Positions 18,483 through 45,839 of a stretch of DNA of 64,000 bases are shown here, one piece after another (position 1 is the stretch's first letter; each line of letters starts with the position of its first letter). Source of the DNA: a virus (Duplodnaviria; Caudoviricetes); IMG/VR virus record IMGVR_UViG_3300014208_000024, positions 160,001-224,000 of that record; one strand, written 5' to 3'. Position numbers and translations under genes: made by a program. A model generated the notes under the pieces. It was not told the origin of the DNA and did no database searches. It worked only from the letters and a program-made list of their open reading frames with translations.

Positions 18483-18511
18483 AATTCTTAAGAGTTATTT
18501 TTAGATAAATA

Positions 18512-18543
18512 TTTGAAAATTTTGTTTTTTTTTATTATCTTTA
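18512..18543 (+). promoter_or_regulatory. Bacteroidota-type promoter at the start of the glycan island
   Basis: TTTG (18512-18515), 20 nt, TATCTTTA (18536-18543). Confidence 0.55.
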
Positions 18544-18569
18544 CATAAATAGAAAAAAAAACATCAATA

Positions 18570-19370
18570 ATGATAAATTCAATAATTTTTAGTTTTGACA
18601 GAGCCGCTCAATTACACTTACTTTTAGAATCAATTGAAAAAAACGCAAAAAACATTTTTAACATCAGTGTTTTATATAAATCATCTAACGAAGAATTTGA
18701 AAAATCTTATTCTTTATTAGCATCAAGATTTATTAATATAAATTGGGTGCCAGAAACTAATTTTAAAGAACAAACTTTAAAATTATTAGATTCCAATTTA
18801 GATTACACTTGCTTTTTTACAGATGATGATATAATATATAATGGTGTAAAAGAGGAAGAAATCATTGATTGTTTAAAAGATAATGATATTTTTTGTTTTA
18901 GCTTAAGATTAGGATTTAATGTAAATGTTTGCTATTCCATGAAGTGTGAAAATGTTCTTATTCCAGACAAACAAGATCAAAAATTTGTTTGGTGGAACTG
19001 GGTAAAAAGTTATGCAGATTTTGGATATCCTTTATCGGTAGATGGTCACATTTTTAGAACTAAAGAAATTAAAAAATTAATTAGGGCAATAAATTTCCTT
19101 AATCCAAATACTTTAGAAGGGGGTTTACAAATTTTTGATAACTATCCTAAAGAAATTATGGTCGCATATAAAACAAGCTCTTTAGTTAATTCTCCTAATA
19201 ATATTGTTAATGAAACACATCCTAATAGAAAAGGAGAAAAATATAAATTTTTAGCAGAAGAATTAAATGAAATATATTTAAGTGGTAAAATAATAGATTA
19301 TAATTCGATAGATTTTTCTGACATAAAAGGATGTCATCAAGAATTAGATTTTAAATTTAAAAACATATAA
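18570..19370 (+). CDS. GT-A fold glycosyltransferase-like protein
   Basis: IIFSFDRAAQLHLLLESI N-terminus and a CFFTDDDII DxD-type motif. First gene of the glycan island. Confidence 0.65.
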   Translation: MINSIIFSFDRAAQLHLLLESIEKNAKNIFNISVLYKSSNEEFEKSYSLLASRFININWVPETNFKEQTLKLLDSNLDYTCFFTDDDIIYNGVKEEEIIDCLKDNDIFCFSLRLGFNVNVCYSMKCENVLIPDKQDQKFVWWNWVKSYADFGYPLSVDGHIFRTKEIKKLIRAINFLNPNTLEGGLQIFDNYPKEIMVAYKTSSLVNSPNNIVNETHPNRKGEKYKFLAEELNEIYLSGKIIDYNSIDFSDIKGCHQELDFKFKNI

Positions 19371-19371
19371 A

Positions 19372-20172
19372 ATGACCAAAATGTTGTCTCCAATTTTTGT
19401 TTCACCAGGATTTTCATCTGTTGAATATGATAAAAACTTAATTAAAATAATTGTTCCATTTTATAATGCTGAAAATTTTATTGAAAAAAGTATGATGTCC
19501 GCATTAACTCAAAAATATGAAGATTTTAAAGTTATTTTTATTGATGATGCATCAACAGATGGTTCATGGGAAAAGTTGCCACATGATAATGAAAAAGCAA
19601 TATGTATAAGAAATGATGTTAATTTAACCGCATTGCCAAATATACATAAAGCCATAATGGAGTATTGTAACCCAAATGATATTGTTGTTCTTTTAGATGG
19701 AGATGATTGGCTCCCAAATAATAAGGTTCTTCAATATATTAATGAGTTTTATTGTAAAAACGATTGTTGGATAATGTATGGACAAGCAACTTGGAGCAAT
19801 GGTCAAAAGGGGTGTGCTTATGAATATACAGAAGAAGAATTTAATCACTTGAGAAAATCTGCATTTAAGGTTTCTCACATAAGAACTTTTAGAGCTGGAT
19901 TATATCAAAAAATAAAAGAACAAGATTTTAATTTCTCATGTATGAAAGATAAAGATGGAAAGTGGTATAAAATGACATATGATGTGGGAATAATGTTTCC
20001 AATTATGGAAATGGCAGGCTATAATAAAATTAAATATAATGATAAATCACTTTACGTTTATAACTTCGAAAATCCAATCAGTGATCATAGAGTTAACCAA
20101 CAACTACAATGGGATATCCATAAAGAAATATCAAACAAACAACCTTTTAAAAAAATAGAAAGCTATCTATAA
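19372..20172 (+). CDS. Glycosyltransferase family 2
   Basis: IIVPFYNAENFI..., FIDDASTDGS and LLDGDDWL. Confidence 0.9.
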   Translation: MTKMLSPIFVSPGFSSVEYDKNLIKIIVPFYNAENFIEKSMMSALTQKYEDFKVIFIDDASTDGSWEKLPHDNEKAICIRNDVNLTALPNIHKAIMEYCNPNDIVVLLDGDDWLPNNKVLQYINEFYCKNDCWIMYGQATWSNGQKGCAYEYTEEEFNHLRKSAFKVSHIRTFRAGLYQKIKEQDFNFSCMKDKDGKWYKMTYDVGIMFPIMEMAGYNKIKYNDKSLYVYNFENPISDHRVNQQLQWDIHKEISNKQPFKKIESYL

Positions 20173-20915
20173 TGAACAATCATTTTACCATAGCAATAGA
20201 CACTTGTAATCACCAAGATTGGATTGAAAGGTGTTTAAATACGTGTTTAACACAGAAATATGATAATTATGAAGTTATCTTGGTAGATGCGATTTCTAAT
20301 GATAAAACTTTTGAAATTGCAAAAAAATATGAAAAAGAATTTAATATTTTAAAAACTTATCAAAATGAAATTAGAATTCCACAGGTTGCTAATTTTTTGT
20401 GGCTTGCAGAATTATCAAAACCGAAAACTATAATAGTTTCAATAGATGGGGACGATTGGTTAAAAAACAGCAAGGTTCTTCAAAAATTAAACAATGTATA
20501 CAACTCTGGTAATGTTTGGATGACTTATGGCACTTATGAAGAATATCCTTATAGAAGTGTTTCTCATATTTATAAACCTTATCCTGATGATGTTATAAAA
20601 AACAATTCATTTAGAGAATATCAATGGTTGGCATCCCATCTTAGAACTTTTAAAAGAGAGCTTATTTTAAAAATAAATAAAGACGATTGTAAAAGAGAAG
20701 ACGGAGAATGGCTTGACACAGCAGGAGATCAAGCTATAATGCTTCCAATGTTAGAAATGTCAGGAACAAGAAGTAGATATATCTCAGATGTTTTATATAT
20801 TTATAACGTAGCAAATCAACAAAGAGATGGAGCTATTAATGAACCAAGACAAGTGACTCTAGCAAATTATGTTAGGTCAAAGAAAAAATATAATGTAATT
20901 GAAACTTTAGAATAA
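20172..20915 (+). CDS. Glycosyltransferase family 2 (paralog of the preceding gene)
   Basis: LVDAISNDKT, SIDGDDWL and SHLRTFK; extensive motif sharing with 19372-20172. Confidence 0.88.
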   Translation: MNNHFTIAIDTCNHQDWIERCLNTCLTQKYDNYEVILVDAISNDKTFEIAKKYEKEFNILKTYQNEIRIPQVANFLWLAELSKPKTIIVSIDGDDWLKNSKVLQKLNNVYNSGNVWMTYGTYEEYPYRSVSHIYKPYPDDVIKNNSFREYQWLASHLRTFKRELILKINKDDCKREDGEWLDTAGDQAIMLPMLEMSGTRSRYISDVLYIYNVANQQRDGAINEPRQVTLANYVRSKKKYNVIETLE

Positions 20916-21586
20916 TGGTTGTAGGAAATGGAATGTTAGCAAAAGCCTTTAAAATGTACGAAAACAACGGAGATGTTGTTATCTTTGCATCTGGCGTATC
21001 TAATTCTAAAGAAGAAAATATTTTTGAATATAAAAGAGAATTGAGTTTATTGAAAAAATATATAAATTCTAAAAAAATAATTTATTTTAGCACCATTAGT
21101 ATTTTTGATGAAAGTTTAAGTAGATTAAAATATATATCACACAAGTTAGAAGTAGAGAAATTTATAAAAGAAAATTGGCAAAATTATATAATTTTTAGAT
21201 TACCAAACGTTGTTGGAAAATCAGAAAACACAAATACGTCTTTTAATTTTTTTAAAGACAAAATTTTAAAAAATGAAGAAATACAAATACAAAAAAATGC
21301 CATTAGGTATTTTATAGATGTTGATGATTTATCAAATATTTTACCTATCATTATTTCAAAAGAAACTAAAAAAACAATAAATGTTTGTTTTGATAATAAA
21401 ATTTTTATAACTGAAATGATTTTGTTTTTTGAAGAATTATTAAAAATTAAAGCAAAAAAAACACTTATAGAGGGCGGAGAAAATTATGAAATTGATAATT
21501 ATTATTTTATGAATATAGTAAAAGAAAATAATATTATATTTAATAGTGAATATAACAAAAACTTAATTAAAAAATATTTATACTAA
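20915..21586 (+). CDS. NAD-dependent epimerase/dehydratase-like (short SDR)
   Basis: VVGNGMLAKAF Rossmann start, IFASGVSNS, YFSTIS, YISHK (YxxxK-like) and IFRLPNVVG. Confidence 0.75.
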   Translation: MVVGNGMLAKAFKMYENNGDVVIFASGVSNSKEENIFEYKRELSLLKKYINSKKIIYFSTISIFDESLSRLKYISHKLEVEKFIKENWQNYIIFRLPNVVGKSENTNTSFNFFKDKILKNEEIQIQKNAIRYFIDVDDLSNILPIIISKETKKTINVCFDNKIFITEMILFFEELLKIKAKKTLIEGGENYEIDNYYFMNIVKENNIIFNSEYNKNLIKKYLY

Positions 21587-21587
21587 T

Positions 21588-22469
21588 ATGCAAAAACCAT
21601 TTGTTTTTACAGAAGCATATGACTGCGGTTTGATTTTAAAAAAGTGTCTTGAATCATTTTTTAAATACCATCCAGATACAAAAGTTAATGTTTTTGGTAC
21701 TGCCAAAGACTTTAAAGAAGTAGGAAAATTCAAAAACATAGAGTATTTTGAAATGAGCGACGATAATGAACTTAAAGAATGTTTTAAACATGGTCATCTT
21801 GGAACTGCACATATTGGCACCAGGGTAATAAAGGAATTTTCTATTGGACATGACTACATAATTCATTTTGATAGTGATGTTATATTTAGAAAAGAATCTA
21901 TTTCTCTACTTACAAATAAAATAGAAGAAGGATATGATTTAATTGGACCAGTTAGGTGTTATAAAAATAATATGAATGGAAGAAAAGATTTGTCCGAATT
22001 GAAAGATATCACACAAACTTATTTTTATGCATTTAATAAAAATAAAATAAGCCAATATGATTTTAACACACTAAGACAAATGATTGTTGGATATTATAAT
22101 CCACTTAATCATCCAATTTTAGATTACTTTGATCCAGTTGGTTTTGATATTCTAAAAAATGACGGAAAAATATGCTTTTTAAATACAGACGAAGTTGGCG
22201 GATTAACAATAGATGGGAATAGAAAAAACAAATTTGAACAACTAAACAGTGATATGGATTTTGGAGAAAACTTAATGCATTTTGCTGGAGTAGGATCAGG
22301 AATGAAATTTTACTTCAAAGACAAAGGAACGGCACATCAATCATATGTTGATTGGGCAAAATCAAAATTTGCCTTATATTATAAGCTTTTTTATAATACT
22401 GATTTGAAAGATGTTTTAATCGATAATGAAAAATATGAATTACTAAAAAATTATTTAAATTATGAATGA
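21588..22469 (+). CDS. GT-A fold glycosyltransferase-like protein
   Basis: YIIHFDSDVIF DxD motif; island context. Confidence 0.6.
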   Translation: MQKPFVFTEAYDCGLILKKCLESFFKYHPDTKVNVFGTAKDFKEVGKFKNIEYFEMSDDNELKECFKHGHLGTAHIGTRVIKEFSIGHDYIIHFDSDVIFRKESISLLTNKIEEGYDLIGPVRCYKNNMNGRKDLSELKDITQTYFYAFNKNKISQYDFNTLRQMIVGYYNPLNHPILDYFDPVGFDILKNDGKICFLNTDEVGGLTIDGNRKNKFEQLNSDMDFGENLMHFAGVGSGMKFYFKDKGTAHQSYVDWAKSKFALYYKLFYNTDLKDVLIDNEKYELLKNYLNYE

Positions 22470-23346
22470 ATTGATAAATAAAATATTAAGTAAAAAGATA
22501 GATTATGAATATATAAAAAATGAAGATTCACATTTTTTATTATTTGATGAAGACCAGGATTTTGATATAAATGTAATAATTGGAACCAGAGGCAGAAAAG
22601 AGTTTTTAAATCCATTAATAGATAGCTTTAAAGAAGCAATAAAAAATACTGATAAAAAAATTTGTTTAACAATTATTAATCACGCTATTTTTCCAGAACA
22701 CTTAAAATATTGCAAGACAAATAAAATAAATTATATTTGGACAAAAGGAAACGAAGTTGAACAATATAGTAGAAGTTTTGTGTATAATTTTGGAGTAAAA
22801 TATGGAAATCAATCAAAATTTTATTTGCTCCATGATTTAGATATATTAGTAAAGAAAAATTTCTTCAAAGAATTATATAAAAACCTAAAAAATTATAAAT
22901 GTTTACAAACATATGGAAAAAGAAGGGTATTATATTTATCAGAAGAATTAACAAAAAAAATAATTTCTAAAGAAATTGATTATAACAATTTTGATGAAAA
23001 TTCTACAGGAGTTTCTTTGCCAATGTATAATGGTCACCCAGCACTAGGATCAAAAGGAGGTTCTATATTAATTGAAAAGGATCTATTTTTTAATGTTGGA
23101 GGATTTGATCCAGAATTATTTTGGGGATATGCAGCAGAAGATCAATTTTTTTGGGAAAAAGTTAACATTGTTTCGAATGTTGGATTTGCAGACGAACCTT
23201 CAATTGATTTATTTCATATGTGGCATCCCCCATCAGTATCTTCAAACCCTTTATTGTACGATATGGAAAAAGATTGGTTATGTTTTAAAAACATGAATCA
23301 AAATGAAAAAAAAGAAATTATAGAATTAAAAAAACAATTATTTTAA
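22462..23346 (+). CDS. Glycosyltransferase, GT2/GT7-like (galactosyltransferase C-terminal motif)
   Basis: SRSFVYNFGV, LLHDLDILV, GGFDPELFWGYAAEDQFF and LFHMWHP. Confidence 0.8.
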   Translation: MNELINKILSKKIDYEYIKNEDSHFLLFDEDQDFDINVIIGTRGRKEFLNPLIDSFKEAIKNTDKKICLTIINHAIFPEHLKYCKTNKINYIWTKGNEVEQYSRSFVYNFGVKYGNQSKFYLLHDLDILVKKNFFKELYKNLKNYKCLQTYGKRRVLYLSEELTKKIISKEIDYNNFDENSTGVSLPMYNGHPALGSKGGSILIEKDLFFNVGGFDPELFWGYAAEDQFFWEKVNIVSNVGFADEPSIDLFHMWHPPSVSSNPLLYDMEKDWLCFKNMNQNEKKEIIELKKQLF

Positions 23347-23352
23347 ATTATT

Positions 23353-24021
23353 ATGGAATATAATTCAGAAAACAAATTAATCTTAAAAAATGTTACTCTT
23401 ATCGCTGTTTCATCTGTAAAATTAAGTGCCACAATAAAAGCGATAGAACACAGTATAAAAAACATTGAGTTTGGAAGTGTAAAATTAGTTACTGATGCAA
23501 ATTTAACACACGATAAAATAAAAATAGAAAAATGCAATAACATTTTCAGTTTGGATGAATATAGTAGGTTTATGATTTATGACTTAAATAAATATGTAGA
23601 CACAGATTTTGTTATAACAGTACAACATGACGGTTTTGTTGTAAATCCAGATAAATGGAAAAACGAGTTTCTAAATTATGATTATATCGGTGCACCATGG
23701 CCAGATAAGCTTTTTTATGATGATTTTGGAGAAATGATAAGAGTTGGAAATGGCGGATTTAGCTTAAGAAGTAAAAAATTATTAAATATTTTTTTAAAAC
23801 ACAATATTGAATGGCGATCATATAGAAACTATTGGAATGAAGATGGATTTATTTCAATGCACAATCTTCATTTTTTAAGAGATAATGGAGTTAAATTTCC
23901 AGATGTGAATCTTGCATATAAATTTTCAAGAGAATATAATTGTGATGAATTAGATAATTCAATAGAGCCATTTGGGTTTCACAACTACAGAGATAAAAAT
24001 TCACAATATCCTAGATTTTAA
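23353..24021 (+). CDS. DUF5672-family protein (putative glycosyltransferase)
   Basis: TVQHDGFV, FLNYDYIGAPW, VGNGGFSLRSKK, NEDGF and PFGFH. Confidence 0.8.
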   Translation: MEYNSENKLILKNVTLIAVSSVKLSATIKAIEHSIKNIEFGSVKLVTDANLTHDKIKIEKCNNIFSLDEYSRFMIYDLNKYVDTDFVITVQHDGFVVNPDKWKNEFLNYDYIGAPWPDKLFYDDFGEMIRVGNGGFSLRSKKLLNIFLKHNIEWRSYRNYWNEDGFISMHNLHFLRDNGVKFPDVNLAYKFSREYNCDELDNSIEPFGFHNYRDKNSQYPRF

Positions 24022-24045
24022 AATATACTAATTAAAAAACAAAAA

Positions 24046-24780
24046 ATGGAAACTCAAGAATTTAAATATACCGACAGTTATAAAGCAGCTCAAACATATG
24101 AGCTTGCTTGTAATAATGATTTTGTAGAAAAAAACATAGATTGTATTAATGTTTTTAAAAAATTATTTGGTGACATAAAAGAATTTAAAAAAAATGGTTA
24201 TATTACAGATATATCAAAAGGATTTTCTTGGCAAACAATAATTGAAGAATTCTTTAAAGGATCTGTTAGTGATTTTTATGAATTTATAGAAAAAATAAAA
24301 TATAAAAACAATTTAGAAATAGGCTCTGGACCTTGTGGATTATTAAATTCATTATATTGGATTGAAAAAAGGAATATTATAGAACCTTTAATAAAAGAAT
24401 ATAAACAAAAACAAATAGAGTTATATGGTGAAACATTATTTGACAATTCAATTAATTTATATTCACAACCAGCAGAAATAATAATCCAAGAATTAATTAA
24501 TAACATTGATGGAGTTATTATTTGCAGAAATTGTCTTGATCATACTCAAGATTGGAAAATTATTGTAGAAAACATCAGTAAATATGCAGCATTGGGTTCG
24601 TATTTATTACTTTGGACCGATTTGTTTCACATAGGAACAGATGCTGGACATTTTAATATTACAAAGGATAAAAAATATTTTATAGAATATGTACAAAATT
24701 TAGGATATGAAATTATAAATGAATGGGAAATGTCGCAAAGGCAAGGTGTAAACATAGGTTTTATTGCAATAAAAATTTAA
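24046..24780 (+). CDS. Class I SAM-dependent methyltransferase
   Basis: LEIGSGPCG motif I and CRNCLDHT. Confidence 0.75.
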   Translation: METQEFKYTDSYKAAQTYELACNNDFVEKNIDCINVFKKLFGDIKEFKKNGYITDISKGFSWQTIIEEFFKGSVSDFYEFIEKIKYKNNLEIGSGPCGLLNSLYWIEKRNIIEPLIKEYKQKQIELYGETLFDNSINLYSQPAEIIIQELINNIDGVIICRNCLDHTQDWKIIVENISKYAALGSYLLLWTDLFHIGTDAGHFNITKDKKYFIEYVQNLGYEIINEWEMSQRQGVNIGFIAIKI

Positions 24781-24790
24781 TTTTATTAAA

Positions 24791-25825
24791 ATGAAAATAG
24801 CAATAATTGGTGCAGGATTTTATGGTTGTTTTTTAGCAAAAGAATTTTTAAAAAACAACATTGTACATATATATGAAAAGGAATGTGAAATTTTCCCAAA
24901 GCAATCGGCAATACTTAACAATCAGCATAGACTACATAATGGATTTCATTATCCACGATCTTTCGAAACAATTGAACAAGCTATAAGATGTTATATCCCA
25001 TTTTTCGACGAATTTAAAAAATATTGTTATATACCAAACAATAATATTTATTTAATACACAAAAATTCAAAAGTCAACTTTGATGAATATTTAAAAATTT
25101 ATAAAAATTATAATATTTGCTTTGAAGAAATAAATTTAGATAAAATAAAAAAATTAAAAAATAAGGAACAATTTGATGGTGCAATAAGAGTTGGTGAGGG
25201 AATTATAGATACTCATGAGATAAAAAAGTTTTTTGAAAAAATAATATATAAAAACAGTAATTTGAAAATATTTTTTAATAAAACAATAAATGAGTGTGAT
25301 ATCGAAAAAATGAAAGATCAATATGATGTTTTATTAAATTGTTCTTATAATCATTGTAATATAGGATTGAAAAAAAAATTTAATATAAAACACGAACTTT
25401 GTTCTTTATTATTAATTAAAAATTTTTCCAGCAAAAACGATGCATACACAATAATGGATGGAGAATTTGTTTCTATATATCCGACTTTGTTAAATTATCA
25501 CACAATATCATCAGTAACAGAAACTCCTTTTTTAAAATCAAAAAGCGTTGATATAAAAATGACATATCAAGATTTATACAATCACTATATTGAGCATAAT
25601 GTTAAAGAACGCATAATTGAACATACTAAAAAATTTATAGAATTTAAAGAAGATGATGTGTTTGGACAATACTTAACAATAAAAACAAAATTTAATAATG
25701 ACGTTAAAGACAGAAGACGAAATACTCTTATAAAAACTGAAGACAATTACTCAAGTGTATTGTGTGGTAAAATATCTGCGGTTTATGATGTTTTAAGTGA
25801 AATAAAAAAACAATTTAATTTATAA
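24791..25825 (+). CDS. FAD-dependent oxidoreductase
   Basis: MKIAIIGAGFYG, NQHRLHNGFHYPRS, TIMDGEFVSIYP and GKI at the C-terminus. Confidence 0.88.
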   Translation: MKIAIIGAGFYGCFLAKEFLKNNIVHIYEKECEIFPKQSAILNNQHRLHNGFHYPRSFETIEQAIRCYIPFFDEFKKYCYIPNNNIYLIHKNSKVNFDEYLKIYKNYNICFEEINLDKIKKLKNKEQFDGAIRVGEGIIDTHEIKKFFEKIIYKNSNLKIFFNKTINECDIEKMKDQYDVLLNCSYNHCNIGLKKKFNIKHELCSLLLIKNFSSKNDAYTIMDGEFVSIYPTLLNYHTISSVTETPFLKSKSVDIKMTYQDLYNHYIEHNVKERIIEHTKKFIEFKEDDVFGQYLTIKTKFNNDVKDRRRNTLIKTEDNYSSVLCGKISAVYDVLSEIKKQFNL

Positions 25826-25826
25826 A

Positions 25827-27318: not shown

Positions 27319-27319
27319 A

Positions 27320-28309: not shown

Positions 28310-28311
28310 TA

Positions 28312-28343
28312 TTTGTTTTTTTATAAAAAATTTATTATATTTA
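28312..28343 (+). promoter_or_regulatory. Internal Bacteroidota-type promoter
   Basis: TTTG (28312-28315), 20 nt, TATATTTA (28336-28343), in one of the few intergenic gaps of the island. Confidence 0.55.
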
Positions 28344-28358
28344 ACTAAAAATAAAATT

Positions 28359-28979: not shown

Positions 28980-28983
28980 ATAC

Positions 28984-29781: not shown

Positions 29782-29782
29782 T

Positions 29783-30475: not shown

Positions 30476-30477
30476 GA

Positions 30478-33842: not shown

Positions 33843-33859
33843 AAAACTCCTTTGTTTTC

Positions 33860-33890
33860 TTGATATATTCTTTTGATTTTATTATATTTG
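33860..33890 (+). promoter_or_regulatory. Internal Bacteroidota-type promoter
   Basis: TTG (33860-33862), 20 nt, TATATTTG (33883-33890). Confidence 0.65.
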
Positions 33891-33908
33891 TGAACAAAAC
33901 TTTAATAA

Positions 33909-35228: not shown

Positions 35229-35910
35229 ATTAATTTTAGGAGATGGTCTTTTGGGGAGTCAAATTCACAAAATCACAAATTGGGATTTTATAAGTAGAAA
35301 AAAAAATAAAATTGATTTTAATAACATTCATTCATATTATGATTATTTAAATAACTATGAAGAAATAATTAACTGCATTGCAAATACAAACACATATTCT
35401 ACAGACAAAGATTTAATGTGGAAAACAAATGTGGTCGGGCTTTCTGATTTGGTTGACACATGTTCAATTTGTAAAAAAAAGATTATTCATATTTCATCAG
35501 ACTATATTTATTCCAATTCAATAGAGAATGCATCAGAAGAAGATGTTCCAGTGCATTGCGCAAACTGGTATGGATACACAAAACTCATAGGAGATGCATA
35601 TGTTCAACTAAAAGCTGGTGAATATTTACTAATAAGAACTACACAAAAGAAAAAACCATTTACTCATGAATGTGCATTTATAAATCAAATTGGTAACTTT
35701 GATTATGTTGACAAAATAGCTCCAATAATAGTTGATTTAATTGAAAAAAATGCCACAGGAGTATTTAATGTTGGAACCGAATTAAAAACTATGATGGATT
35801 TAGCAAAACAAACTAAAAATGATGTTAAACCAGGAACTTATTTGTTTGATCCAACAATGCCTACAAATGTTTCTATGAATATTAATAAATTAAAAAATTT
35901 TTTAAAATAA
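35218..35910 (+). CDS. RmlD-like NDP-4-keto-6-deoxysugar reductase
   Basis: LILGDGLLG, IHISSDYIY and WYGYTKL (YxxxK). Confidence 0.82.
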   Translation: MKSRLILGDGLLGSQIHKITNWDFISRKKNKIDFNNIHSYYDYLNNYEEIINCIANTNTYSTDKDLMWKTNVVGLSDLVDTCSICKKKIIHISSDYIYSNSIENASEEDVPVHCANWYGYTKLIGDAYVQLKAGEYLLIRTTQKKKPFTHECAFINQIGNFDYVDKIAPIIVDLIEKNATGVFNVGTELKTMMDLAKQTKNDVKPGTYLFDPTMPTNVSMNINKLKNFLK

Positions 35911-35916
35911 AATAAT

Positions 35917-36537
35917 ATGTACAACAGCCAGCACCTACAAGATAAATATATGAATGAAAATATCTTTAAAAATAAAAGAAATGGTGTTTTTTTAGATATT
36001 GGAGCCAATGATGGAATTGCTATAAACAATACTTTGTTTTTTGAAAAAGAACTTGGATGGACTGGGATATGTATAGAACCCTATCCTTCTATTTTTGAAA
36101 AACTAAAAAATAATAGAAGTTGCATTTGTATCAATGGTTGTATTGCTAAAGAAACGAAAAAAGATATTTTTTTAGAGGTTTCAGGATATCCAGCAATGCT
36201 TAGCGGATTAAAGTCGGAATATTGTGAAAAGCATTTACAAAGAATAGATTATGAAATAGGATTGTTTGGGGGATCTAAAAAAGAAATAGAAGTTCAATGC
36301 TACAACATAAACGAAGTCTTAACACAACATAATATGTTTAATATTGATTTTTGCAGCTTAGATATAGAAGGTGGAGAGTTTAATGTTCTTCAAACAATAG
36401 ATTTTGATAAAATAAACATACATGCTTTCAGTATAGAAAACGCATATAGTGAATCAAAATTTAAAAAATTTATGAAAACAAAAGGATATAAACTAATTGA
36501 TGTATTAGAGTGTGATGATATATATGTTAAACAATAA
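35917..36537 (+). CDS. FkbM-family methyltransferase
   Basis: YNSQHLQD, FLDIGANDG, NNTLFFEKELGWTGICIEP and SLDIEGGE. Confidence 0.9.
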   Translation: MYNSQHLQDKYMNENIFKNKRNGVFLDIGANDGIAINNTLFFEKELGWTGICIEPYPSIFEKLKNNRSCICINGCIAKETKKDIFLEVSGYPAMLSGLKSEYCEKHLQRIDYEIGLFGGSKKEIEVQCYNINEVLTQHNMFNIDFCSLDIEGGEFNVLQTIDFDKINIHAFSIENAYSESKFKKFMKTKGYKLIDVLECDDIYVKQ

Positions 36538-36548
36538 TTTTTAAAGCT

Positions 36549-37199
36549 ATGTTAAATTTTTATGGTCAAGAAAGAAAAATTCTAGTTTATTGCGGAATCA
36601 ATAACGGAGATGGTTTAATGGAAGAAATTAACGATTATGATATTATATATGGATTTGATGCAAATATTGATAAAGTAAAAATTTGTCAAGAAAGATTTAA
36701 ATCTAACATGAAAAAAACTTTTAAATTCTTTAATTATGCCCTAACAGAAAATGATAATGAATTTATTAGATTTAATATATTTGAAAACTGGGATGCCTCT
36801 TCTACAATCGGAACAGTTAATCCAGAATATGGACATTTAAAAAACGAAAATGGAGTTTTACACAATTCGCCTATAAAATCAATAGAGGTAAAAACTATAA
36901 ATTTGGGAAATTTTTTAAAAAAAATGGGCATAAAAAAAATTCACAAATTAGTCACTGACTTACAGGGATACGATTTAACGGTTTTAAAAACATTAAAAGA
37001 GTTTATCGATACTCAAAATATTGATATGATTAAAAGTGAAGTGGAATGGGATAAAACCCCTCCAATTCACATCAATTCACCTTCAAATAAATTTTCTGAT
37101 TTTGAAAAACTTTTTGATGGAAAATACGAAAAATACTGGCATCTTCCAGAATCAGAAGAGTGGTGGGAAACTGATATGGTCTTTATTCCTAAAAAATAA
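36549..37199 (+). CDS. Divergent FkbM-like methyltransferase
   Basis: LVYCGINNGD, YGFDAN, FNYALT, ASSTIG, VKTINL and LVTDLQGYD. Confidence 0.7.
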   Translation: MLNFYGQERKILVYCGINNGDGLMEEINDYDIIYGFDANIDKVKICQERFKSNMKKTFKFFNYALTENDNEFIRFNIFENWDASSTIGTVNPEYGHLKNENGVLHNSPIKSIEVKTINLGNFLKKMGIKKIHKLVTDLQGYDLTVLKTLKEFIDTQNIDMIKSEVEWDKTPPIHINSPSNKFSDFEKLFDGKYEKYWHLPESEEWWETDMVFIPKK

Positions 37200-37201
37200 G
37201 C

Positions 37202-39160
37202 ATGAAACAAAAATATACAATACAACTTGTACAATTTAACAACAAATATGGTTCACAAGTTTATTTGCCTTATAGTGTTGGAGTATTATCAAGTTACGTA
37301 TCAACAGATAAGTTTATATTAGATAAATTCGAATTTAAAGAATTTGTTTTTATTACAGAAAAATTACATGATTTAATTAAAAGAATAGGAAAAGTCGATA
37401 TATTGGGAATTTCTTGTTATAATTGGAACTGGGCGTTAAGTTTAAAATTGGCCGAAGAGGTTAAAAAAAACAACCCAAGTTGTTTAATAATTTTAGGAGG
37501 TCCACAAGTTCCAAATGAAACATCTGATTTTTTTAAAAAAAATCCATTTATTGATATTACAGTTCATGGAGAAGGAGAAAAAACTTTCTATGAAATATTA
37601 AAAAATTATTCACAATCTAATTTTGAAACTCTTAAGCATATTTCTGGAACTACATTCTATGATAGAAAAAACGATGAGGTTGTAAAATCGCTTCAAAGGA
37701 ATTTTATTGAAGACTTAAGTAGTATGCAATCTCCATATCTAGATGGAACATTTGATGATTTGTTAAATAACAAAAAATATGCTTGGATGATAATTTGGGA
37801 AACAAACCGTGGATGTCCTTTTAAATGTTCTTTTTGTGATTGGGGTTCTGCCACTAAATCTAAAATTAGAAAGTTTGACAATGACAGATTGATAAAAGAA
37901 TTAGATTACTTTGCAGAAAAAAAAATAGAACTTATATTTGGAGCAGATGCTAATTTTGGAATCTTCAAAAGAGATAAAGATTATGCAATTAAAATGACAC
38001 AGAATAAAAAAAAATATGGATATCCAAAACAATTTAGAGTTTGCTTTACTAAAAATTCAACAGATAAAGTTTTTGAATTGTCTAAAATCTTTGATGATGC
38101 TGGAATGAATAAGGGAATATCGATAAGTATGCAATCGCTAAACGAACAGGCATTGGTTAACATACAAAGAACAAATATTAAAATGGAATTTTTTAATGAA
38201 TTACAAAAAAAATATACTACAAATGGACTTATAACATATACTGAATTGATATTACCACTTCCAGGAGAAACTTATGATTCTTTTGTAGAAGGAATAGATT
38301 CTTTATTAAATAACTCACAACATTCTGGTATAGTTGTATATAACTGTGTTATAATGCCAAATGCAAAAATGGGAGATAAAAATTACCAGCAAGAATTTGG
38401 ATTGAAAAATGTTGAAATTCCAATATTTCAAGCACATTCTGATTTTAAGGATTCAAGTTGTATTATAGAAAAAGAAGAAATTGTTGTTGAAACAAAAACT
38501 ATGAATAAATATGATTACATTAGATCATTTAAATATAGTTGGATAATTCAAAGCATGCACACTCTAGGAATGTTGCAAGTTGTTTCTATAATATTTAAAT
38601 ATCATTTTGGAATTAAATATTCAGAATTTTATAGTAGTATTATAAAATATGGAGAAGACAATCCTTGTACAATTATTGGAAAAGAATTAAAAAAGATTGA
38701 TACATTATTAAACGGGGTACTATCTGGAAGTGGATTTGATCAGGAAGTTCCTGGGTTTGAATCTGTGTCTTGGCCTCCAGAAGAAGCTACATATTTGAGA
38801 GTATCAGAGAAAATTGATGACTTTTATTTTGAAATAAAAAAATTTTTACAAAGTAAGTATAAAAATTTATTTATAGATAACAAAGTTTTATCTGATGTTT
38901 TCGATTACCAAAAAGCCAGAAGTGTGAGATTTGATAATCAAGATTCACAAAGCATTTTGTTGTCTTATGATATACATAACTTTTTTGAAAACTGTAGAGC
39001 TGGAATTATCGATGAACTTAAAAAAACAAAAATGAACTTAATAACAAATCCAAAAATGAGTTTTACGGATAAAAAAGAATTTTCAAGAGAAATTGTTTGG
39101 TATGGAAGAAAGGGTGGAAAATTCTTTCATCCAATTAAAAATAAAATTGATATAAAATGA
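37202..39160 (+). CDS. B12-binding radical SAM enzyme (class B methyltransferase-like)
   Basis: N-terminal cobalamin-binding domain (YLPYSVG..., GISCYNWN, ILGGPQVP, VHGEGE) and a CxxxCxxC motif ETNRGCPFKCSFCDWG. Confidence 0.92.
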   Translation: MKQKYTIQLVQFNNKYGSQVYLPYSVGVLSSYVSTDKFILDKFEFKEFVFITEKLHDLIKRIGKVDILGISCYNWNWALSLKLAEEVKKNNPSCLIILGGPQVPNETSDFFKKNPFIDITVHGEGEKTFYEILKNYSQSNFETLKHISGTTFYDRKNDEVVKSLQRNFIEDLSSMQSPYLDGTFDDLLNNKKYAWMIIWETNRGCPFKCSFCDWGSATKSKIRKFDNDRLIKELDYFAEKKIELIFGADANFGIFKRDKDYAIKMTQNKKKYGYPKQFRVCFTKNSTDKVFELSKIFDDAGMNKGISISMQSLNEQALVNIQRTNIKMEFFNELQKKYTTNGLITYTELILPLPGETYDSFVEGIDSLLNNSQHSGIVVYNCVIMPNAKMGDKNYQQEFGLKNVEIPIFQAHSDFKDSSCIIEKEEIVVETKTMNKYDYIRSFKYSWIIQSMHTLGMLQVVSIIFKYHFGIKYSEFYSSIIKYGEDNPCTIIGKELKKIDTLLNGVLSGSGFDQEVPGFESVSWPPEEATYLRVSEKIDDFYFEIKKFLQSKYKNLFIDNKVLSDVFDYQKARSVRFDNQDSQSILLSYDIHNFFENCRAGIIDELKKTKMNLITNPKMSFTDKKEFSREIVWYGRKGGKFFHPIKNKIDIK

Positions 39161-39954
39161 AGCAAATTATAAATTCTTACACATATCCAGATTGGCCAAA
39201 CATAGAGGTTGATTATAAAAAAAAAATTAGATATTTTGTTGATGGGTTCCATGGATATAATCCATCTGAAGATAGCTTTAAAGTCCTACATATAAAAGAG
39301 GCAGAAGCTATATGTAAATTAAGAGAAGAAGTTATAAAAAATCAAGAAAAATTTGATGTCATAATAACTTTTGATGAAGAAATTTTAAAAAATTGCAAAA
39401 ACTCTTATTTTTTCCCATTTGGAACAACTTGGGTCCACAAATACTCATTTATAGAAAAAAGATTTCAAATTTCAAACATCACTGGACATAAAGAAATAAC
39501 AGAAGGCCATATTTTAAGAAAAAAAATACACTATAAACAAACAAAAATTTCTAATCCAACCGATTTTTACATAAGTAAACATTTAGGTGTAGAAAATTTT
39601 AATAATAACAAAATTCTTGGAGATTTAAAAGAGCCTTTATTTGATTCTCAATTTCACATTTGTATAGAAAACTCAAAACAAAAAAACTATTTTACTGAAA
39701 AAATAATGGATTGTTTTGTAACCAAAACAGTTCCTATATATTGGGGATGTCCAAATATAAAAGATTTTTTTGACACAAGCTCAATCATCATAGTCAATGA
39801 TTTTAAGGAAATTATTGATGTTTGTAACAGTTTGACTTCTGAAAGTTATAAAAAAATGCTTCCTGGAATAGAAAAAAATTTGATTTTATCAAAAAATTAT
39901 ATAGATTTAGTTAGAAATATCAAGAAATTATTAATAGAAAAAATTTTATTATGA
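39157..39954 (+). CDS. Alpha-1,3-fucosyltransferase-like (GT10)
   Basis: QFHICIENS...YFTEKIMDCF...TVPIYWG GDP-fucose-binding motif. Confidence 0.85.
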   Translation: MKQIINSYTYPDWPNIEVDYKKKIRYFVDGFHGYNPSEDSFKVLHIKEAEAICKLREEVIKNQEKFDVIITFDEEILKNCKNSYFFPFGTTWVHKYSFIEKRFQISNITGHKEITEGHILRKKIHYKQTKISNPTDFYISKHLGVENFNNNKILGDLKEPLFDSQFHICIENSKQKNYFTEKIMDCFVTKTVPIYWGCPNIKDFFDTSSIIIVNDFKEIIDVCNSLTSESYKKMLPGIEKNLILSKNYIDLVRNIKKLLIEKILL

Positions 39955-40874
39955 AAGCAATAGTAACAGGAGCAAATGGTCTTTTGGGATCAGCATTGAA
40001 AAAACAACTTGGAGAAGATCATATTTATCACACAAGACAACAGTGTGACCTACTAAGAATAAACGAAATAAATCAATATTTTTACCATATAAACGAAACA
40101 GAGCATCCAGACACACTCATACACTGTGCCGCAAAGGTTGGTGGGGTGCAAGCCAATATAAATGATAATAGTGGATTCTTTTTACAAAATCTTTTTATAA
40201 ACAACAATGTAATCGGGACTGCAATTGTTTATGAATACAAAAACGTTGTAAACATATTGTCAACCTGTGTATTTCCTGACAAAGAAGTGATATATCCATT
40301 AACGGCAAACCAAATAGACAATGGAAAACCACATCCATCTAATCACGGCTATTCTTATGCAAAAAGACTTTTGTATTATTCAACAAAATACGCAAGAGAA
40401 ATAACTGGAAATAATTGGATTTCTATTATACCGACCAACATCTATGGTGAACAAGATAATTTTAATTTAGAAAACGGACACTTAATGCCAGCTTTAATTA
40501 ATAAAGCACACACAGCATCAAAATTAAATCAAGATTTTGTTGTTTGGGGAGATGGAACACCATTAAGACAATTTATATATTCAGAAGATTTGGCAAAAAT
40601 AATTTTATGGGCCATTGATAATTGGAAATCTGGAACCCCAATGATGGCTGTAAATGAAAAAGAATATTCAATTAAAGACATTGTTAACATTATAGCAGAC
40701 AGATTTAAAATTTCACAAGAAAGAATTAAATTTGACATTACAAAACCAAATGGACAATTTAGAAAACCAGCAAAACCTGATGTTCCTGCAGATTTTAAAT
40801 TTACACCGTTGGATGAAGGAATAAATAAAACAATTGATTGGTATTTAAAAAACATAAACAATGCTAGAAAATAA
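39951..40874 (+). CDS. fcl: GDP-L-fucose synthase / ColC-like epimerase-reductase
   Basis: VTGANGLLG, HCAAKVGG, LSTCVFP, YSYAKR, PTNIYG.QDNF, VWGDGTPLRQF and PNGQFRK. Confidence 0.92.
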   Translation: MKAIVTGANGLLGSALKKQLGEDHIYHTRQQCDLLRINEINQYFYHINETEHPDTLIHCAAKVGGVQANINDNSGFFLQNLFINNNVIGTAIVYEYKNVVNILSTCVFPDKEVIYPLTANQIDNGKPHPSNHGYSYAKRLLYYSTKYAREITGNNWISIIPTNIYGEQDNFNLENGHLMPALINKAHTASKLNQDFVVWGDGTPLRQFIYSEDLAKIILWAIDNWKSGTPMMAVNEKEYSIKDIVNIIADRFKISQERIKFDITKPNGQFRKPAKPDVPADFKFTPLDEGINKTIDWYLKNINNARK

Positions 40875-42039
40875 TATGAAAAAAATTACATTAGTAAGCG
40901 ACACAATAAACAAAGATGACGTTAATGCAATAATAGAATGGTTAAAACAAGATCCAACTCCTAAATTAACAAAAGGCGATTTGACCATTTTGCTAGAAAA
41001 AAGATGGGCAGAAAAAGTTGGTACAAAACATTCTATATTTGTTAATTCTGGTTCTTCTGCTATTTTATTATTACTTGCAGCACTCAAGGAAACTGGAAAG
41101 TATAGTAATAAAATTGTTTGTCCAGCTCTTAGTTGGATAACAGATGTTAGCACTCCAATCTTATTAGGTTTTGATCCAATATTGTGTGATTGTAACTTGG
41201 AAGATTTGTCTTGTGATCTAAATGAGTTGGAAAATATATTTAAAAAAAACCAAAGTGACAAACCAATGCTTTTTATTTCTGTTTCTACTTTAGGAATAGT
41301 TCCAAAAATTAATGAATTACTTTGTTTATGTAAAAAGTATAACGTAGAACTAATAGAAGACAATTGTGAAAGCATGGGTTCCACTTACGAAAACAAGATG
41401 CTTGGATCGTTTGGCCTTGCATCAGTGTATAGTATGTACTTCGGTCACCACATATCAACAATAGAGGGTGGGTTTATTAATACAAGCGACGAAGAATTAA
41501 ATACAATTTTACTTTCAATGAGAAGTCATGGATGGAATAGAGATTTGTCATATGAAGCAAAACAAAGTTTAAAAAAAGAATGGAATACATCTGACTTTGA
41601 TGAGTTGTATTGCTTTTATTATCCAGGACTTAATCTTAGATCAACCGATCTTCAAGCGTTTATTGGATTAAGAGCAATAGAAAAACTTGATTTTTATAGC
41701 TTAATGAGAAATAAAAATTTTTTTTACTACCAAAAGACAATAAAAAACAATGAACTTAAAATAGAAAAAAGAGAAAACTCATTTATATCAAATCTTGGTT
41801 ATCCAGTTTTAAATAAAAATAGAAATTTAATTGCAAAAGAGTTACAAAAAAACAATATAGAATCAAGACCATTAATAGCAGGCTCAATAGCAAACAAACC
41901 GTTCTGGATTAAAAAGTATGGTAGATCATCTTTTACAAATGCAGATAAAGTTGATAAATTTGGTTTGTATTTGCCTAATCACCACGATTTATTAGAATGC
42001 GATATAGAAACTATAGCAAATATTATTAATAAATTTTAA
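40861..42039 (+). CDS. colD: GDP-4-keto-6-deoxy-D-mannose 3-dehydratase (ColD-like; DegT fold, His-type)
   Basis: SMYFGHHISTIEGG (His at the Lys position), EDNCESMG, LLSMRSHGWNR, YPGLNLRSTD and SRPLIAG. Confidence 0.82.
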   Translation: MLENNMKKITLVSDTINKDDVNAIIEWLKQDPTPKLTKGDLTILLEKRWAEKVGTKHSIFVNSGSSAILLLLAALKETGKYSNKIVCPALSWITDVSTPILLGFDPILCDCNLEDLSCDLNELENIFKKNQSDKPMLFISVSTLGIVPKINELLCLCKKYNVELIEDNCESMGSTYENKMLGSFGLASVYSMYFGHHISTIEGGFINTSDEELNTILLSMRSHGWNRDLSYEAKQSLKKEWNTSDFDELYCFYYPGLNLRSTDLQAFIGLRAIEKLDFYSLMRNKNFFYYQKTIKNNELKIEKRENSFISNLGYPVLNKNRNLIAKELQKNNIESRPLIAGSIANKPFWIKKYGRSSFTNADKVDKFGLYLPNHHDLLECDIETIANIINKF

Positions 42040-42113
42040 AAAGTGTTTTATTATTGGATTTGATGGTTTAAAAATTTTTTACTATATAAAAACAAAAAAT
42101 ACAAAATAGAATT

Positions 42114-43142
42114 ATGAAAAAAATCGCATTTTGCACAGGAATAAATGGACAGGATGGAAGTTATCTATCTGAAATGTTGTTAGAGAAAGGATATGAAGTT
42201 CATGGAATGATTAGAAGGAGCAGTTCTTTTAATACAAAAAAGATAGACCACATTTATGATAAGTTAAAATTACATTTTGGAGACGTAACAGATCCGTTGG
42301 TTATTTCAGCTTTAATTTCAAAAATACAACCAGATGAAATTTATAATCTAGCAGCTCAATCACACGTTAAGGTTTCTTTTGAAATACCGTATTATACAGG
42401 ACAAGTAGATGCAATTGGAACATTAAACATACTTGAGGCCATTAAAAACCATTGTCCAAAAGCTAAGTTTTATCAAGCTTCTACATCTGAATTGTATGGA
42501 AAGGTTCAAGAAATTCCACAAAAAGAAACGACTCCGTTTTATCCAAGAAGCCCCTATGGTGTTGCAAAGCTTTATGGTTATTGGATTGTTAAAAATTACA
42601 GAGAAGCTTATGGGGTGTTTGCTTGTAACGGAATATTGTTTAATCACGAATCTCCTAAAAGAGGACTTACTTTTGTTACAAGAAAAATAACATCAGAGCT
42701 TGTAAAAATAAAACATGGAGAGAAAAAAACCCTTCTCCTCGGAAATTTGGATGCAAAAAGAGATTGGGGACACGCAAAAGAATATGTAGAAGGAATGTGG
42801 AGAATGCTTCAATTAGATGAACCAGAAGACTTTGTTTTAGCAACTGGAAAGGCATATTCTGTTAGACATTTTATTGAAGTTGCTACAGAATATCTTGGAT
42901 ATGAAATTGAGTGGATAGGAGATGGAATAGATGAAAAGGGATATGATAAAAAAACTGGACAATTATTAATTGAAATTGATCCAAAATATTTTAGACCATC
43001 AGAGGTTGATTTTTTACTTGGTGATGCAACAAAAGCAAAAGAAATATTGGGCTGGGAACCAAAAATTCACTTTAATGAACTAATTATAGACATACTAAAG
43101 GGAGACATTGAACAGTATGAAAAATTTGGAAAAATAGAATAA
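42114..43142 (+). CDS. gmd: GDP-mannose 4,6-dehydratase
   Basis: [58 protein letters not shown] and RDWGHA. Confidence 0.97.
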
Positions 43143-45838: not shown

Positions 45839-45839
45839 A

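Follow-up and report, generated by a model that had tools for sequence, protein, structure and literature searches.

We analysed a stretch of 64,000 nucleotides (the window), bases 160001-224000 of a single 372,283-bp IMG/VR virus record (IMGVR_UViG_3300014208_000024), which carries at 18570-43142 an island of 28 sugar-related genes. We tentatively favour the explanation that this island is a soluble glycan factory in the cytoplasm of the infected cell, with virion proteins as its most likely targets. Membrane helices are absent from all 28 encoded proteins, including twelve virus-encoded soluble glycosyltransferase (GT)-like proteins, and the 372-kb record contains no lipid-carrier, export or polytopic transporter-like protein. 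The island lies inside the morphogenesis region, with head genes to the left, baseplate genes to the right and the tail sheath gene just upstream of the window. In addition, the first gene product (g1) has a predicted GT-D fold, Gtf3 and GtfC of adhesin O-glycosylation are among the best structural neighbours of g17, and two further GT-B genes stand among the structural genes, one of them behind a late-type promoter box.

Exactly 28 open reading frames (ORFs) on the + strand occupy the island, as the initial annotation had stated when it described 28 tightly coupled genes. The arrangement is almost gap-free: 23 of the 27 junctions overlap or are separated by at most 11 nt and the remaining four gaps measure 24-74 nt, giving a coding fraction of 0.99, with positive GC skew throughout. 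Assignments were made by Pfam and NCBIfam, paralogue comparison, Atlas look-ups, an exhaustive HMMER search, PDB alignments and two AlphaFold (AF2) models searched with Foldseek. A family or fold can now be given for all 28 genes, about seven of these on weak or below-cut-off evidence. Twelve products are transferase-like (g1, g2, g3, g5, g6, g7, g12, g16, g17, g18, g19, g25) and seven are methylating enzymes (class-I g8 and g14; FkbM g13, g15, g22 and g23; B12 radical-SAM g24, SAM being S-adenosylmethionine), close to the earlier estimate of about ten and about seven, respectively. The other nine are donor or redox enzymes, namely Gmd, Fcl/ColC-like, ColD, E1/RfbH, RmlD-like, two short proteins like short-chain dehydrogenases/reductases (SDR), an FAD oxidoreductase and a xylose-isomerase-type TIM barrel; for the gmd, fcl, colD-like, rfbH-like and RmlD-like genes named before, the families were matched by profile and PDB comparisons. 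The genes are as follows.

18570-19370, + strand: g1, GT-D-fold glycosyltransferase-like protein, 266 amino acids; Atlas model against the PF08759 GT-D cluster, TM-score 0.90 over 255 amino acids
19372-20172, + strand: g2, GT2 glycosyltransferase; PF00535, E 4e-17
20172-20915, + strand: g3, GT2 glycosyltransferase, paralogue of g2 (30% identity); PF00535, E 3e-14
20915-21586, + strand: g4, short SDR-like protein, paralogue of g10; PF01370, E 4e-5, profile positions 141-240 (C-terminal part of the epimerase family)
21588-22469, + strand: g5, probable GT-A-type glycosyltransferase (weak); PF00535, E 4e-4, below cut-off; weak PDB matches to ArnC
22462-23346, + strand: g6, probable GT-A-type glycosyltransferase (weak); Glyco_tranf_2_2, E 3e-4; Glyco_transf_7C, E 8e-3; phrog_26327
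23353-24021, + strand: g7, DUF5672 protein; PF18922, E 1e-23; transferase-like by context only
24046-24780, + strand: g8, class-I SAM methyltransferase-like protein; 191 representative homologues, the matched region being their Methyltransf_23/11 domains
24791-25825, + strand: g9, FAD-dependent oxidoreductase (DAO family); weak PF01266; most of 138 homologues carry PF01266 or PF13450
25827-26576, + strand: g10, short SDR-like protein, paralogue of g4; Rossmann motif GHTGFIG
26557-27318, + strand: g11, xylose-isomerase-type TIM barrel (sugar isomerase or epimerase); PF01261, E 5e-10; weak epimerase equivalogs
27320-28309, + strand: g12, GT-A-like glycosyltransferase of a virus-only family; Atlas feature score 0.98 to viral clusters
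28359-28979, + strand: g13, FkbM-family methyltransferase; PF05050, E 1e-16
28984-29781, + strand: g14, class-I methyltransferase-like protein (weak); Methyltransf_2, E 3e-4, and RMNT_CmcI, E 8e-3, both below cut-off
29783-30475, + strand: g15, FkbM-like methyltransferase; BLASTP against g22, E 8e-9
30478-31470, + strand: g16, GT11 (alpha-1,2-fucosyl- or colitosyl-type) transferase; PF01531, E 5e-9
31452-32240, + strand: g17, compact GT-B glycosyltransferase; AF2 model, predicted local distance difference test (pLDDT) 89.6
32230-33123, + strand: g18, GT17-family transferase; PF04724, E 6e-25
33120-33842, + strand: g19, GT-A-fold glycosyltransferase; AF2 model, pLDDT 93.2; 324 PDB matches at E<=1e-3
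33909-35228, + strand: g20, E1/RfbH-type nucleoside-diphosphate (NDP)-4-keto-6-deoxyhexose 3-dehydratase; NF011936, 344 bits (cut-off 423); PDB 3BCX, E 8e-67
35218-35910, + strand: g21, short RmlD-like SDR reductase; PF04321, E 2e-14; GDGLLG and YGYTK motifs
35917-36537, + strand: g22, FkbM-family methyltransferase; PF05050, E 9e-18
36549-37199, + strand: g23, FkbM-family methyltransferase; PF05050, E 3e-10
37202-39160, + strand: g24, B12-binding radical-SAM (class B) methyltransferase; PF02310 and PF04055
39157-39954, + strand: g25, GT10 (alpha-1,3/4-fucosyl-type) transferase; PF00852, E 4e-10
39951-40874, + strand: g26, Fcl/ColC-like GDP-4-keto-6-deoxymannose 3,5-epimerase/4-reductase; PF01370, E 2e-39
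40861-42039, + strand: g27, ColD-type GDP-4-keto-6-deoxymannose 3-dehydratase; best PDB match ColD/WbdK 2GMS, E 4e-51
42114-43142, + strand: g28, GDP-mannose 4,6-dehydratase (Gmd); TIGR01472 equivalog, 534 bits (cut-off 415)

For g1 no Pfam match was obtained; its own Atlas family is mostly viral and the gene is conserved in two of the related phages described below (L013 and L016). The g5 protein is 74% identical in relatives. Single-sequence PDB searches gave weak matches only for g5 and g6, and nothing for g8, g9, g12 and g19. In the homologues of g8, which itself has no Pfam match, the methyltransferase domain is often fused to GT2. The Atlas model of g12, of only moderate confidence (pLDDT 0.64), reached TM-scores of 0.53-0.64 to GT2, GT8 and GT92 clusters, and the leading PDB matches of the g19 model were Mimivirus R699, XXYLT1, GnT-I and SpsA. 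The radical-SAM protein g24 keeps an intact CxxxCxxC motif (CPFKCSFC, residue 205) and scored 294 bits against the KedN5-family C-methyltransferase model, under the cut-off of 700. PHROGs provided no function for the unknown island genes, nor for the flanks of a more distant phage locus (L008).

Starting from GDP-mannose of the host, Gmd would produce GDP-4-keto-6-deoxymannose, from which the ColD-type g27 and the Fcl/ColC-like g26 would form GDP-L-colitose and/or GDP-L-fucose. The g27 protein keeps the catalytic His (GHHIST) aligned to the H-to-N mutant position of 3B8X, with no Schiff-base Lys at this position. Against the GDP-L-fucose synthase (Fcl) equivalog g26 scored 181 bits (cut-off 500), a result by which ColC and Fcl are not told apart. 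Together, Gmd, g27 and g26 would constitute a GDP-colitose route, and g26 with Gmd alone could also yield GDP-fucose. GT10 and GT11 are fucosyl-type families, and a GT11 member is able to transfer colitose. The g20 protein likewise keeps its catalytic His (AHHIT), at the residue mutated H-to-K in 3BB8, together with four aligned Cys. Its pairing with reductase g21 implies a second 3,6-dideoxyhexose, which would be derived from an NDP-4-keto-6-deoxyhexose of the host, and the cassette g9-g12 would supply a further modified sugar together with its own transferase.

The initial annotation had assumed a complete pathway, and this could not be upheld. NTP_transferase (PF00483; ManC/RfbF type) was not found in the 372-kb record, ManB/ManC, RfbF, RfbG and the E3 reductase were likewise not found, and a search for an E3-like iron-sulfur flavoprotein revealed no protein with a plant-type 2Fe-2S motif. 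The island also contains no NDP-glucose 4,6-dehydratase. A lone extended-SDR epimerase/dehydratase gene is located far from the island, at genome position 7371-8354 on the - strand beside an HD-domain gene (Epimerase 202 bits, GDP_Man_Dehyd 164 bits); as the sole candidate NDP-hexose 4,6-dehydratase it could supply NDP-4-keto-6-deoxyhexose. Judged by this gene content, the pathway is not self-sufficient, because a nucleotidyltransferase, E3 and an NDP-glucose 4,6-dehydratase within the island are missing; sugar activation depends on the host, and the donors start from host GDP-mannose and a host NDP-hexose.

Such dependence already ties the pathway to host sugar metabolism, which fits the main alternative, one that we regard as possible but rather unlikely. 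According to this alternative, the enzymes act at the inner membrane face on undecaprenyl-phosphate-linked intermediates of the host, which then exports the altered glycan as O-antigen, as capsule or through the general O-glycosylation of Bacteroidota, for example to block superinfection. The families GT2, GT10, GT11, Gmd, ColD, RfbH and FkbM are indeed those of bacterial O-antigen loci, and remodelling of the host envelope is the standing hypothesis for homologous clusters of cyanomyoviruses (PMC1079782; PMC12801897).

In 27 of the 28 island proteins the maximum Kyte-Doolittle hydropathy over 19 residues stayed below 1.6, and the value of 1.62 in g20 belongs to a buried helix of this pyridoxal phosphate enzyme. 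Neither a hydrophobic N-terminus nor a membrane helix was detected in any of the 28 proteins, in agreement with the earlier remark that transmembrane helices were not evident. The absence of a flippase, polymerase, ABC transporter and initiating transferase, previously noted for the island, was extended to the 372-kb record by six-frame family searches, which matched 10-14 of 14 control genomes. In the whole record, no initiating phosphoglycosyltransferase (Bac_transf/WbaP, Glycos_transf_4/WecA) was found at E<=0.01, no flippase of the Polysacc_synt family (Wzx, PF01943) and no Wzy_C polymerase or ligase (PF04932; Wzy/WaaL). ABC_tran (PF00005) matched merely two P-loop fragments under the cut-off, neither being a real ABC transporter. 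Only two genome ORFs of more than 400 amino acids had at least three hydrophobic segments, a tape-measure-like protein and a coiled-coil protein of 461 amino acids with 3-4 helices; both were rejected as flippase candidates, neither having a Pfam match. The clustered nucleotide-sugar enzymes and glycosyltransferases of a Wzx/Wzy- or ABC-dependent locus are present, and initiation, flippase or exporter, and polymerase or ligase are not. In view of the missing export genes, attachment of the sugar chain probably takes place within the cell.

These statements are valid for 372 kb and not necessarily for the whole virus. The record is linear without end repeats and was rated complete (100%) by CheckV; nevertheless, proteins identical letter for letter to g9 (24791-25825) and g19 (33120-33842) are recorded on a 455,767-bp contig, so the real genome may exceed the 372-kb record by about 83 kb. 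The approximately 83 kb by which that assembly is longer lay outside the export-gene search and count against virion proteins as the target. Furthermore, bacterial O-antigen transferases are normally peripheral and also have no membrane helices, and therefore solubility does not exclude lipid-linked acceptors. Under envelope remodelling, however, a glycan made by up to 12 transferases and seven methylations would have to be accepted by flippase, polymerase and ligase of the host, enzymes that tend to be selective for their own units. Moreover, the 372-kb record contains no gene for a membrane component, in contrast to known seroconverting phages with their membrane proteins, e.g. GtrA/B/C or Wzy.

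With virion proteins as the target, the twelve transferases, including the fucosyl-type GT10 and GT11 enzymes, would attach the sugars one at a time, six SAM methyltransferases would O-methylate them and the B12 radical-SAM enzyme would methylate an unactivated carbon. In the cytoplasm, a virion protein (capsid, sheath, fibre or decoration protein) would act as acceptor and receive its glycan while the particle is assembled or earlier. The predicted product is a large, heavily methylated oligosaccharide rich in deoxy sugars that would cover the particle and, through exchange of cassettes, differ from one relative to another.

Soluble enzymes without export are also compatible with a cytoplasmic product off the virion, free or lipid-anchored. 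Soluble transferases and methyltransferases synthesise polymethylated polysaccharides in the cytoplasm with no export step, and the structural neighbours of g17 include a methylmannose-polysaccharide mannosyltransferase. KedN5-type B12 radical-SAM methylases and FkbM enzymes, for their part, typically occur in natural-product pathways. The product could then be a polymethylated storage-type polysaccharide, similar to the mycobacterial methylmannose polysaccharides or methylglucose lipopolysaccharides (MMP/MGLP), or a small glycosylated compound with an effect on host physiology during infection. We consider this improbable: the island includes no scaffold gene (polyketide synthase, nonribosomal peptide synthetase, lipid or aglycone pathway), a benefit for a phage is not known, and twelve different transferases argue for a defined hetero-oligosaccharide and not for a homopolymer.

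The g17 protein is relevant for a further candidate acceptor. Its AF2 model has BshA, Gtf3 and GtfC as top PDB neighbours (E 4e-5 to 1e-3), and g17-like genes co-occur with GT10, GT11, ColD and Gmd in five other phage loci. An Atlas feature search placed g17 near clusters belonging partly to the T4 beta-glucosyltransferase family (score 0.92-0.93), and phage GTs related to lipopolysaccharide (LPS) enzymes are known to put mono- to trisaccharides on 5-hydroxymethylcytosine (10.1101/2023.12.21.572611). Both findings would suit transferases that hypermodify hydroxymethylated pyrimidines as a protection against restriction, as in T-even phages or in MT/5mYOX/GT clusters. In the 372-kb record, however, neither a Tet_JBP dioxygenase nor the T4-Gluco-transf family (PF09198, E<=1) was found. 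The sole thymidylate synthase homologue, which follows dUTPase, has ordinary ThyA motifs including the dUMP-specifying Asn, although the ThyA motif alone does not strictly exclude a dUMP hydroxymethylase. T4 beta-glucosyltransferase was not among the top 50 PDB matches of the g17 model, which together with the PF09198 search led us to reject g17 as a T4-like DNA glucosyltransferase. Known DNA glycans, moreover, are at most trisaccharides of common sugars and none resembles the product of twelve transferases and seven methylases. We therefore consider DNA bases a very improbable target. The initial annotation had proposed a cytoplasmic acceptor that was either a virion protein or a DNA base; soluble enzymes without export are in line with the cytoplasmic location, but the prerequisites for the DNA base are missing.

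The genomic position of the island is in better agreement with virion proteins. The phage DNA originates from groundwater metagenomes, the phage being uncultured, and the GC content of the window region is about 27-29%. On the left of the island, the - strand carries genes for a T4-type major head protein (phrog_138, E 4e-66), a prohead protease and a homing endonuclease, and furthermore for a von Willebrand factor A (VWA) protein, an ADP-ribosylglycohydrolase, a GT-B-like transferase and PhoH. On the right, a gene for a T5 A1-like protein is followed by an HNH endonuclease gene, a run of unannotated genes including a GT1-family transferase gene, and a baseplate wedge gene. A T4 gp18-type tail sheath gene at genome position 156272-158701, whose product aligns by its N-arm with the N-arm of the T4 sheath, is located immediately upstream of the window. 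The surroundings of the cluster, with major head protein, prohead protease, baseplate wedge and gp18 sheath, thus constitute a T4-like tailed-phage backbone. Two additional transferase genes were detected outside the island.

12242-13594, - strand: GT-B-like glycosyltransferase among the head-side genes; phrog_7162, E 9e-36
48571-49758, + strand: GT1-family (GT-B) glycosyltransferase downstream of the island, amid unannotated late-region genes; PF00534, E 8e-8

The first of these matched Glycos_transf_1 with E 4e-5 and 23.6 bits, under the cut-off of 26.4, and has a late-type CTATTTAT box upstream. The second is kept in relatives, being 62% identical in L013 at the syntenic position. Both are possible partners of the island.

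Among cultured phages, those of Flavobacteriia gave the nearest matches to the head protein and to the A1-like protein, which makes a Bacteroidota host plausible; for the head protein, matches to huge uncultured phages were obtained as well. The major head protein (window 3693-5375, - strand, 560 amino acids) aligned to its Flavobacterium-phage and huge-phage homologues in two pieces, with 61% covered, and may contain a lineage-specific inserted region. Two HNH/homing-endonuclease genes are present, at 2062-3558 (- strand) beside the major head gene and at 44756-45871 (- strand) directly after the A1-like gene at the right edge of the island. The VWA protein (phrog_2426), ADP-ribosylglycohydrolase and PhoH genes occupy 9123-12235 and 15496-16353, between the head genes and the island, and the N-terminal segment of PhoH is strongly hydrophobic. 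ADP-ribosylglycohydrolase is counted among the sugar-related genes of chloroviruses, too (PMC5408694).

The island is genuine phage DNA. Its GC content is 26.2% as compared to 28.7% for the genome, and both flanks consist of phage structural genes, head on the left and baseplate on the right. Contig pieces 100% identical to the island (window 17000-36999) were recovered at low depth in a different groundwater study (2022 vs 2018). The phage flanks, the matching GC content, the synteny in L013 and the identical pieces in the second study together rule out a misassembly or a bacterial flank, a possibility that had been raised by the initial annotation; on neither side was bacterial contig sequence found. 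The identical pieces, obtained in a separate study four years later, also indicate that the same phage genotype persists or recurs in groundwater.

Versions of the island with 17-25 genes were found in at least four related metagenomic phages, all with the same core and swapped cassettes; they include L011/L012, L016/L017 and a 27.8-kb ENA contig. The L013 contig carries the same island and, behind it, the A1-like gene together with five downstream genes that match those found here (42-62% identity), and a similar downstream flank was found in E08AVBVw. About 17 core genes, 40-76% identical, are common to the relatives. In the detailed comparison, the conserved core (g1-g7, g13, g15, g16, g18, g25-g28) is 36-76% identical in two or three relatives, and g17 is common to L011, L013 and more distant phages. 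The cassettes g9-g12 (oxidoreductase, SDR, TIM barrel, transferase) and g20-g21 (E1 dehydratase and reductase) are common to L016 only. Among the sampled relatives, g8, g14, g19 and g22-g24 were found in this phage alone, comprising four methylating enzymes, one transferase and one more FkbM protein. The distant phages L008 and L014 have a smaller set (GT11, Fcl-like, ColD, GT10, g17-like and methyltransferase), with Gmd in L008. As the core is kept while the cassettes differ, the island is, by this comparison of gene content, a lineage-conserved module with exchanged accessory parts. A megablast search of the whole island against GenBank phages gave no match. No related loci were found in IMG/VR via the flanking A1-like protein, which is too widespread to serve as a synteny anchor.

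A shared core with differences in whole cassettes is the pattern expected for a surface structure under diversifying selection. Envelope remodelling predicts neither this variation among close relatives nor the position in the virion region, and a large T4-like myovirus of lytic type would gain from a changed host surface in the latent period only. With more reserve, we also put forward an extended form of the virion explanation, in which the phage autonomously builds a complex giant-virus-style glycan on its own particle in the cytoplasm, with at least ten linkages, two 3,6-dideoxyhexoses, several O-methyl groups and a radical-SAM C-methyl group, and relatives swap cassettes to form a modular 'glycan shield' of jumbo phages that is specific to each strain.

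Further details were observed in the relatives. In L016 (7949-9325), the orthologue of the RmlD-like reductase g21 is fused to a GT2 domain in a protein of 458 amino acids, and this fusion of donor-maker and transferase argues that the reductase product may be used by the fused GT2 transferase. A small ORF lies between g1 and g2 in L011 (139-783) and L013 (453-725), the L011 copy being weakly T4 gp13-like. Signs of rearrangement were seen at island edges, an IS605 OrfB/TnpB gene adjoining the island in one relative.

Promoter-like sequences were less favourable for virion proteins as the target. The CTATTTAT box has 70 copies in the genome, 32 of them located no more than 70 nt ahead of a gene in the same orientation (expectation 4.6%), a ten-fold enrichment. 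It is typically found 20-30 nt before the ATG, and the genes behind it include those for the major head protein, the sheath and the GT-B-like protein at 12242-13594; examples in the window are 3591, 5416, 9039, 13658 and 17398 on the - strand and 16356 on the + strand. By its placement, CTATTTAT is probably a late-promoter box. The T4 late box TATAAATA was enriched, yet mostly as the reverse complement of the real motif CTATTTAT. Sigma-70 and terminator scans remained at background level, and the Bacteroidota TAnnTTTG pattern showed no enrichment as such. A second promoter-like box, TATATTTG, has 19 sites genome-wide and is about four-fold enriched upstream of genes; in the window it occurs at 33883 and 9078. 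On the + strand of the island no CTATTTAT was found, and one copy of TATATTTG, of another box class, precedes g20 by 26 nt, pointing to a promoter within the island that differs in class from CTATTTAT. With these two features, the island is not obviously co-regulated with the virion genes. The same box pattern is consistent with expression ahead of virion assembly, as envelope remodelling would have it. Chlorovirus transferases are likewise early genes.

One coding feature of the island recalls the sheath, a likeness that we do not take as evidence. The g2 protein of this phage has a unique N-terminal extension of 19 amino acids (..IFVSPGFSSVEYD; window 19372-19431), absent from three orthologues, that resembles the conserved N-arm of the phage's own gp18-type sheath (..IFVSPGVYTREQD; genome 158654-158701) in 8 of 16 residues including IFVSPG. 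IFVSPG is one of 89 six-mers common to island and non-island proteins, and the likeness is statistically weak.

Other results, too, weigh against glycosylation of virion proteins. No acceptor protein or acceptor motif was identified, and a search for Ser/Thr repeat proteins similar to serine-rich repeat adhesins revealed only ordinary S/T-rich fibre-like proteins, encoded at 146-158 kb and 225-243 kb of the genome. GT10, GT11, ColD and RfbH are classic O-antigen enzymes. The matches of g17 to Gtf3 and GtfC are modest (TM-score 0.57-0.65) and shared with the non-protein transferases BshA and WbnH, and tblastn searches with g1 and g7 gave no mycobacteriophage homologues.

Comparable gene sets are known from cyanomyoviruses. 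P-SSM2 has an export-less sugar set of 24 genes in two clusters (PMC1079782), and S-SCSM2R has 22 scattered genes with 13 GTs, possibly the most in a marine phage (PMC12801897); the function is unproven in both. In S-B05, a run of about 24 such genes is located beside fibre genes, with homologous members and no annotated export genes. These phages and S-SCSM1 share with the phage studied here a T4-like myovirus backbone and long co-directional runs of epimerase/dehydratase, GT2/GT10/GT11 and O-methyltransferase genes in which no export genes are annotated. Cyanomyovirus Gmd proteins are 64-67% identical to g28 and cyanomyovirus DUF5672 proteins 41% identical to g7, the genes of the latter adjoining DegT or 3-dehydratase genes. 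In contrast to the cyanomyoviruses, the island belongs to a jumbo-sized genome from groundwater with probably a Bacteroidota host, forms a single 28-gene block with two 3-dehydratase branches, a B12 radical-SAM methylase and a GT-D enzyme, and has documented cassette-level variation among relatives.

Glycosylation of capsid proteins by soluble, virus-encoded enzymes is proven in chloroviruses and mycobacteriophages, which sets a precedent for virion proteins as the target. Among systems with an established protein acceptor, the chlorovirus PBCV-1 encodes its own gmd and gmer, transferases without transmembrane helices and a methyltransferase domain, and glycosylates Vp54 in the cytoplasm with glycans containing fucose and methyl-rhamnose (PMC5408694). 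The island resembles it in virus-encoded gmd, epimerase/reductase, soluble transferases and methylation, a likeness that rests on shared families. PBCV-1, however, is a eukaryotic giant virus with scattered genes whose glycan and acceptor are experimentally known, whereas the island is known from its genes. In mycobacteriophages, glycans are present on the subunits of capsid and tail tube (Freeman 2023, cited through PMC12619734); Che8, Corndog and Myrna are tailed phages with soluble transferase genes near virion genes, whose products reportedly glycosylate these subunits in the cytoplasm. The phages differ from ours in host phylum and, by tblastn, in having no g1 or g7 homologues. The cassettes of Freeman et al. 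2023 reportedly consist of few genes, with no donor pathway of such size.

The donor enzymes have their closest bacterial counterparts in the colitose loci of E. coli O55/O111 (Gmd-ColD-ColC) and the 3,6-dideoxyhexose loci of Salmonella and Yersinia (RfbF-G-H/E1-E3), with which the island shares Gmd, the ColD His, the E1 His and Cys, and GT11/GT10. Unlike these loci it is viral and has no ManB/ManC, RfbF, RfbG, E3, initiating transferase, Wzx, Wzy or Wzz. In the serine-rich repeat adhesin system, transferases extend a protein-linked glycan stepwise in the cytoplasm (PMC5063993, PMC5207161), and dGT1, the characterised member of the GT-D family (DUF1792), takes part in this cytoplasmic O-glycosylation (PMC5063993). 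The GT-D protein g1 and the small GT-B protein g17 are structurally similar to enzymes of this system (GtfA/B, Gtf3/GtfC, dGT1), a likeness of structure only and modest for g17. In the phage, by contrast, no GtfA/B pair was identified, no serine-rich repeat acceptor and no accessory Sec system.

With comparable export-less clusters in P-SSM2, S-SCSM2R and S-B05, the island is not the undescribed system for which it had initially been proposed as a candidate; it is an unusually large case of the known, functionally unsolved export-less phage sugar clusters. It is distinguished by its 28 genes in one block, the two 3-dehydratase branches, the seven methylating enzymes including a class-B radical-SAM enzyme and the GT-D enzyme, as well as by the lack of any encoded membrane step across 372 kb and by the core-plus-cassette architecture among relatives. 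To our knowledge, 'LPS-like' clusters of large phages have been known for about twenty years and their glycosylation target has never been shown. The island is our clearest case for such clusters needing no membrane machinery, and it represents a compact source of rare-sugar enzymes for colitose, a second 3,6-dideoxyhexose and O- and C-methylated sugars. If its target is the host surface, a lytic jumbo phage would rewrite the envelope glycans of Bacteroidota with cytoplasmic enzymes only. Should the virion be its target, large phages in general would carry glycan coats, which would then no longer be a curiosity of mycobacteriophages and would have a bearing on phage-host recognition, environmental stability, grazing and immune recognition.

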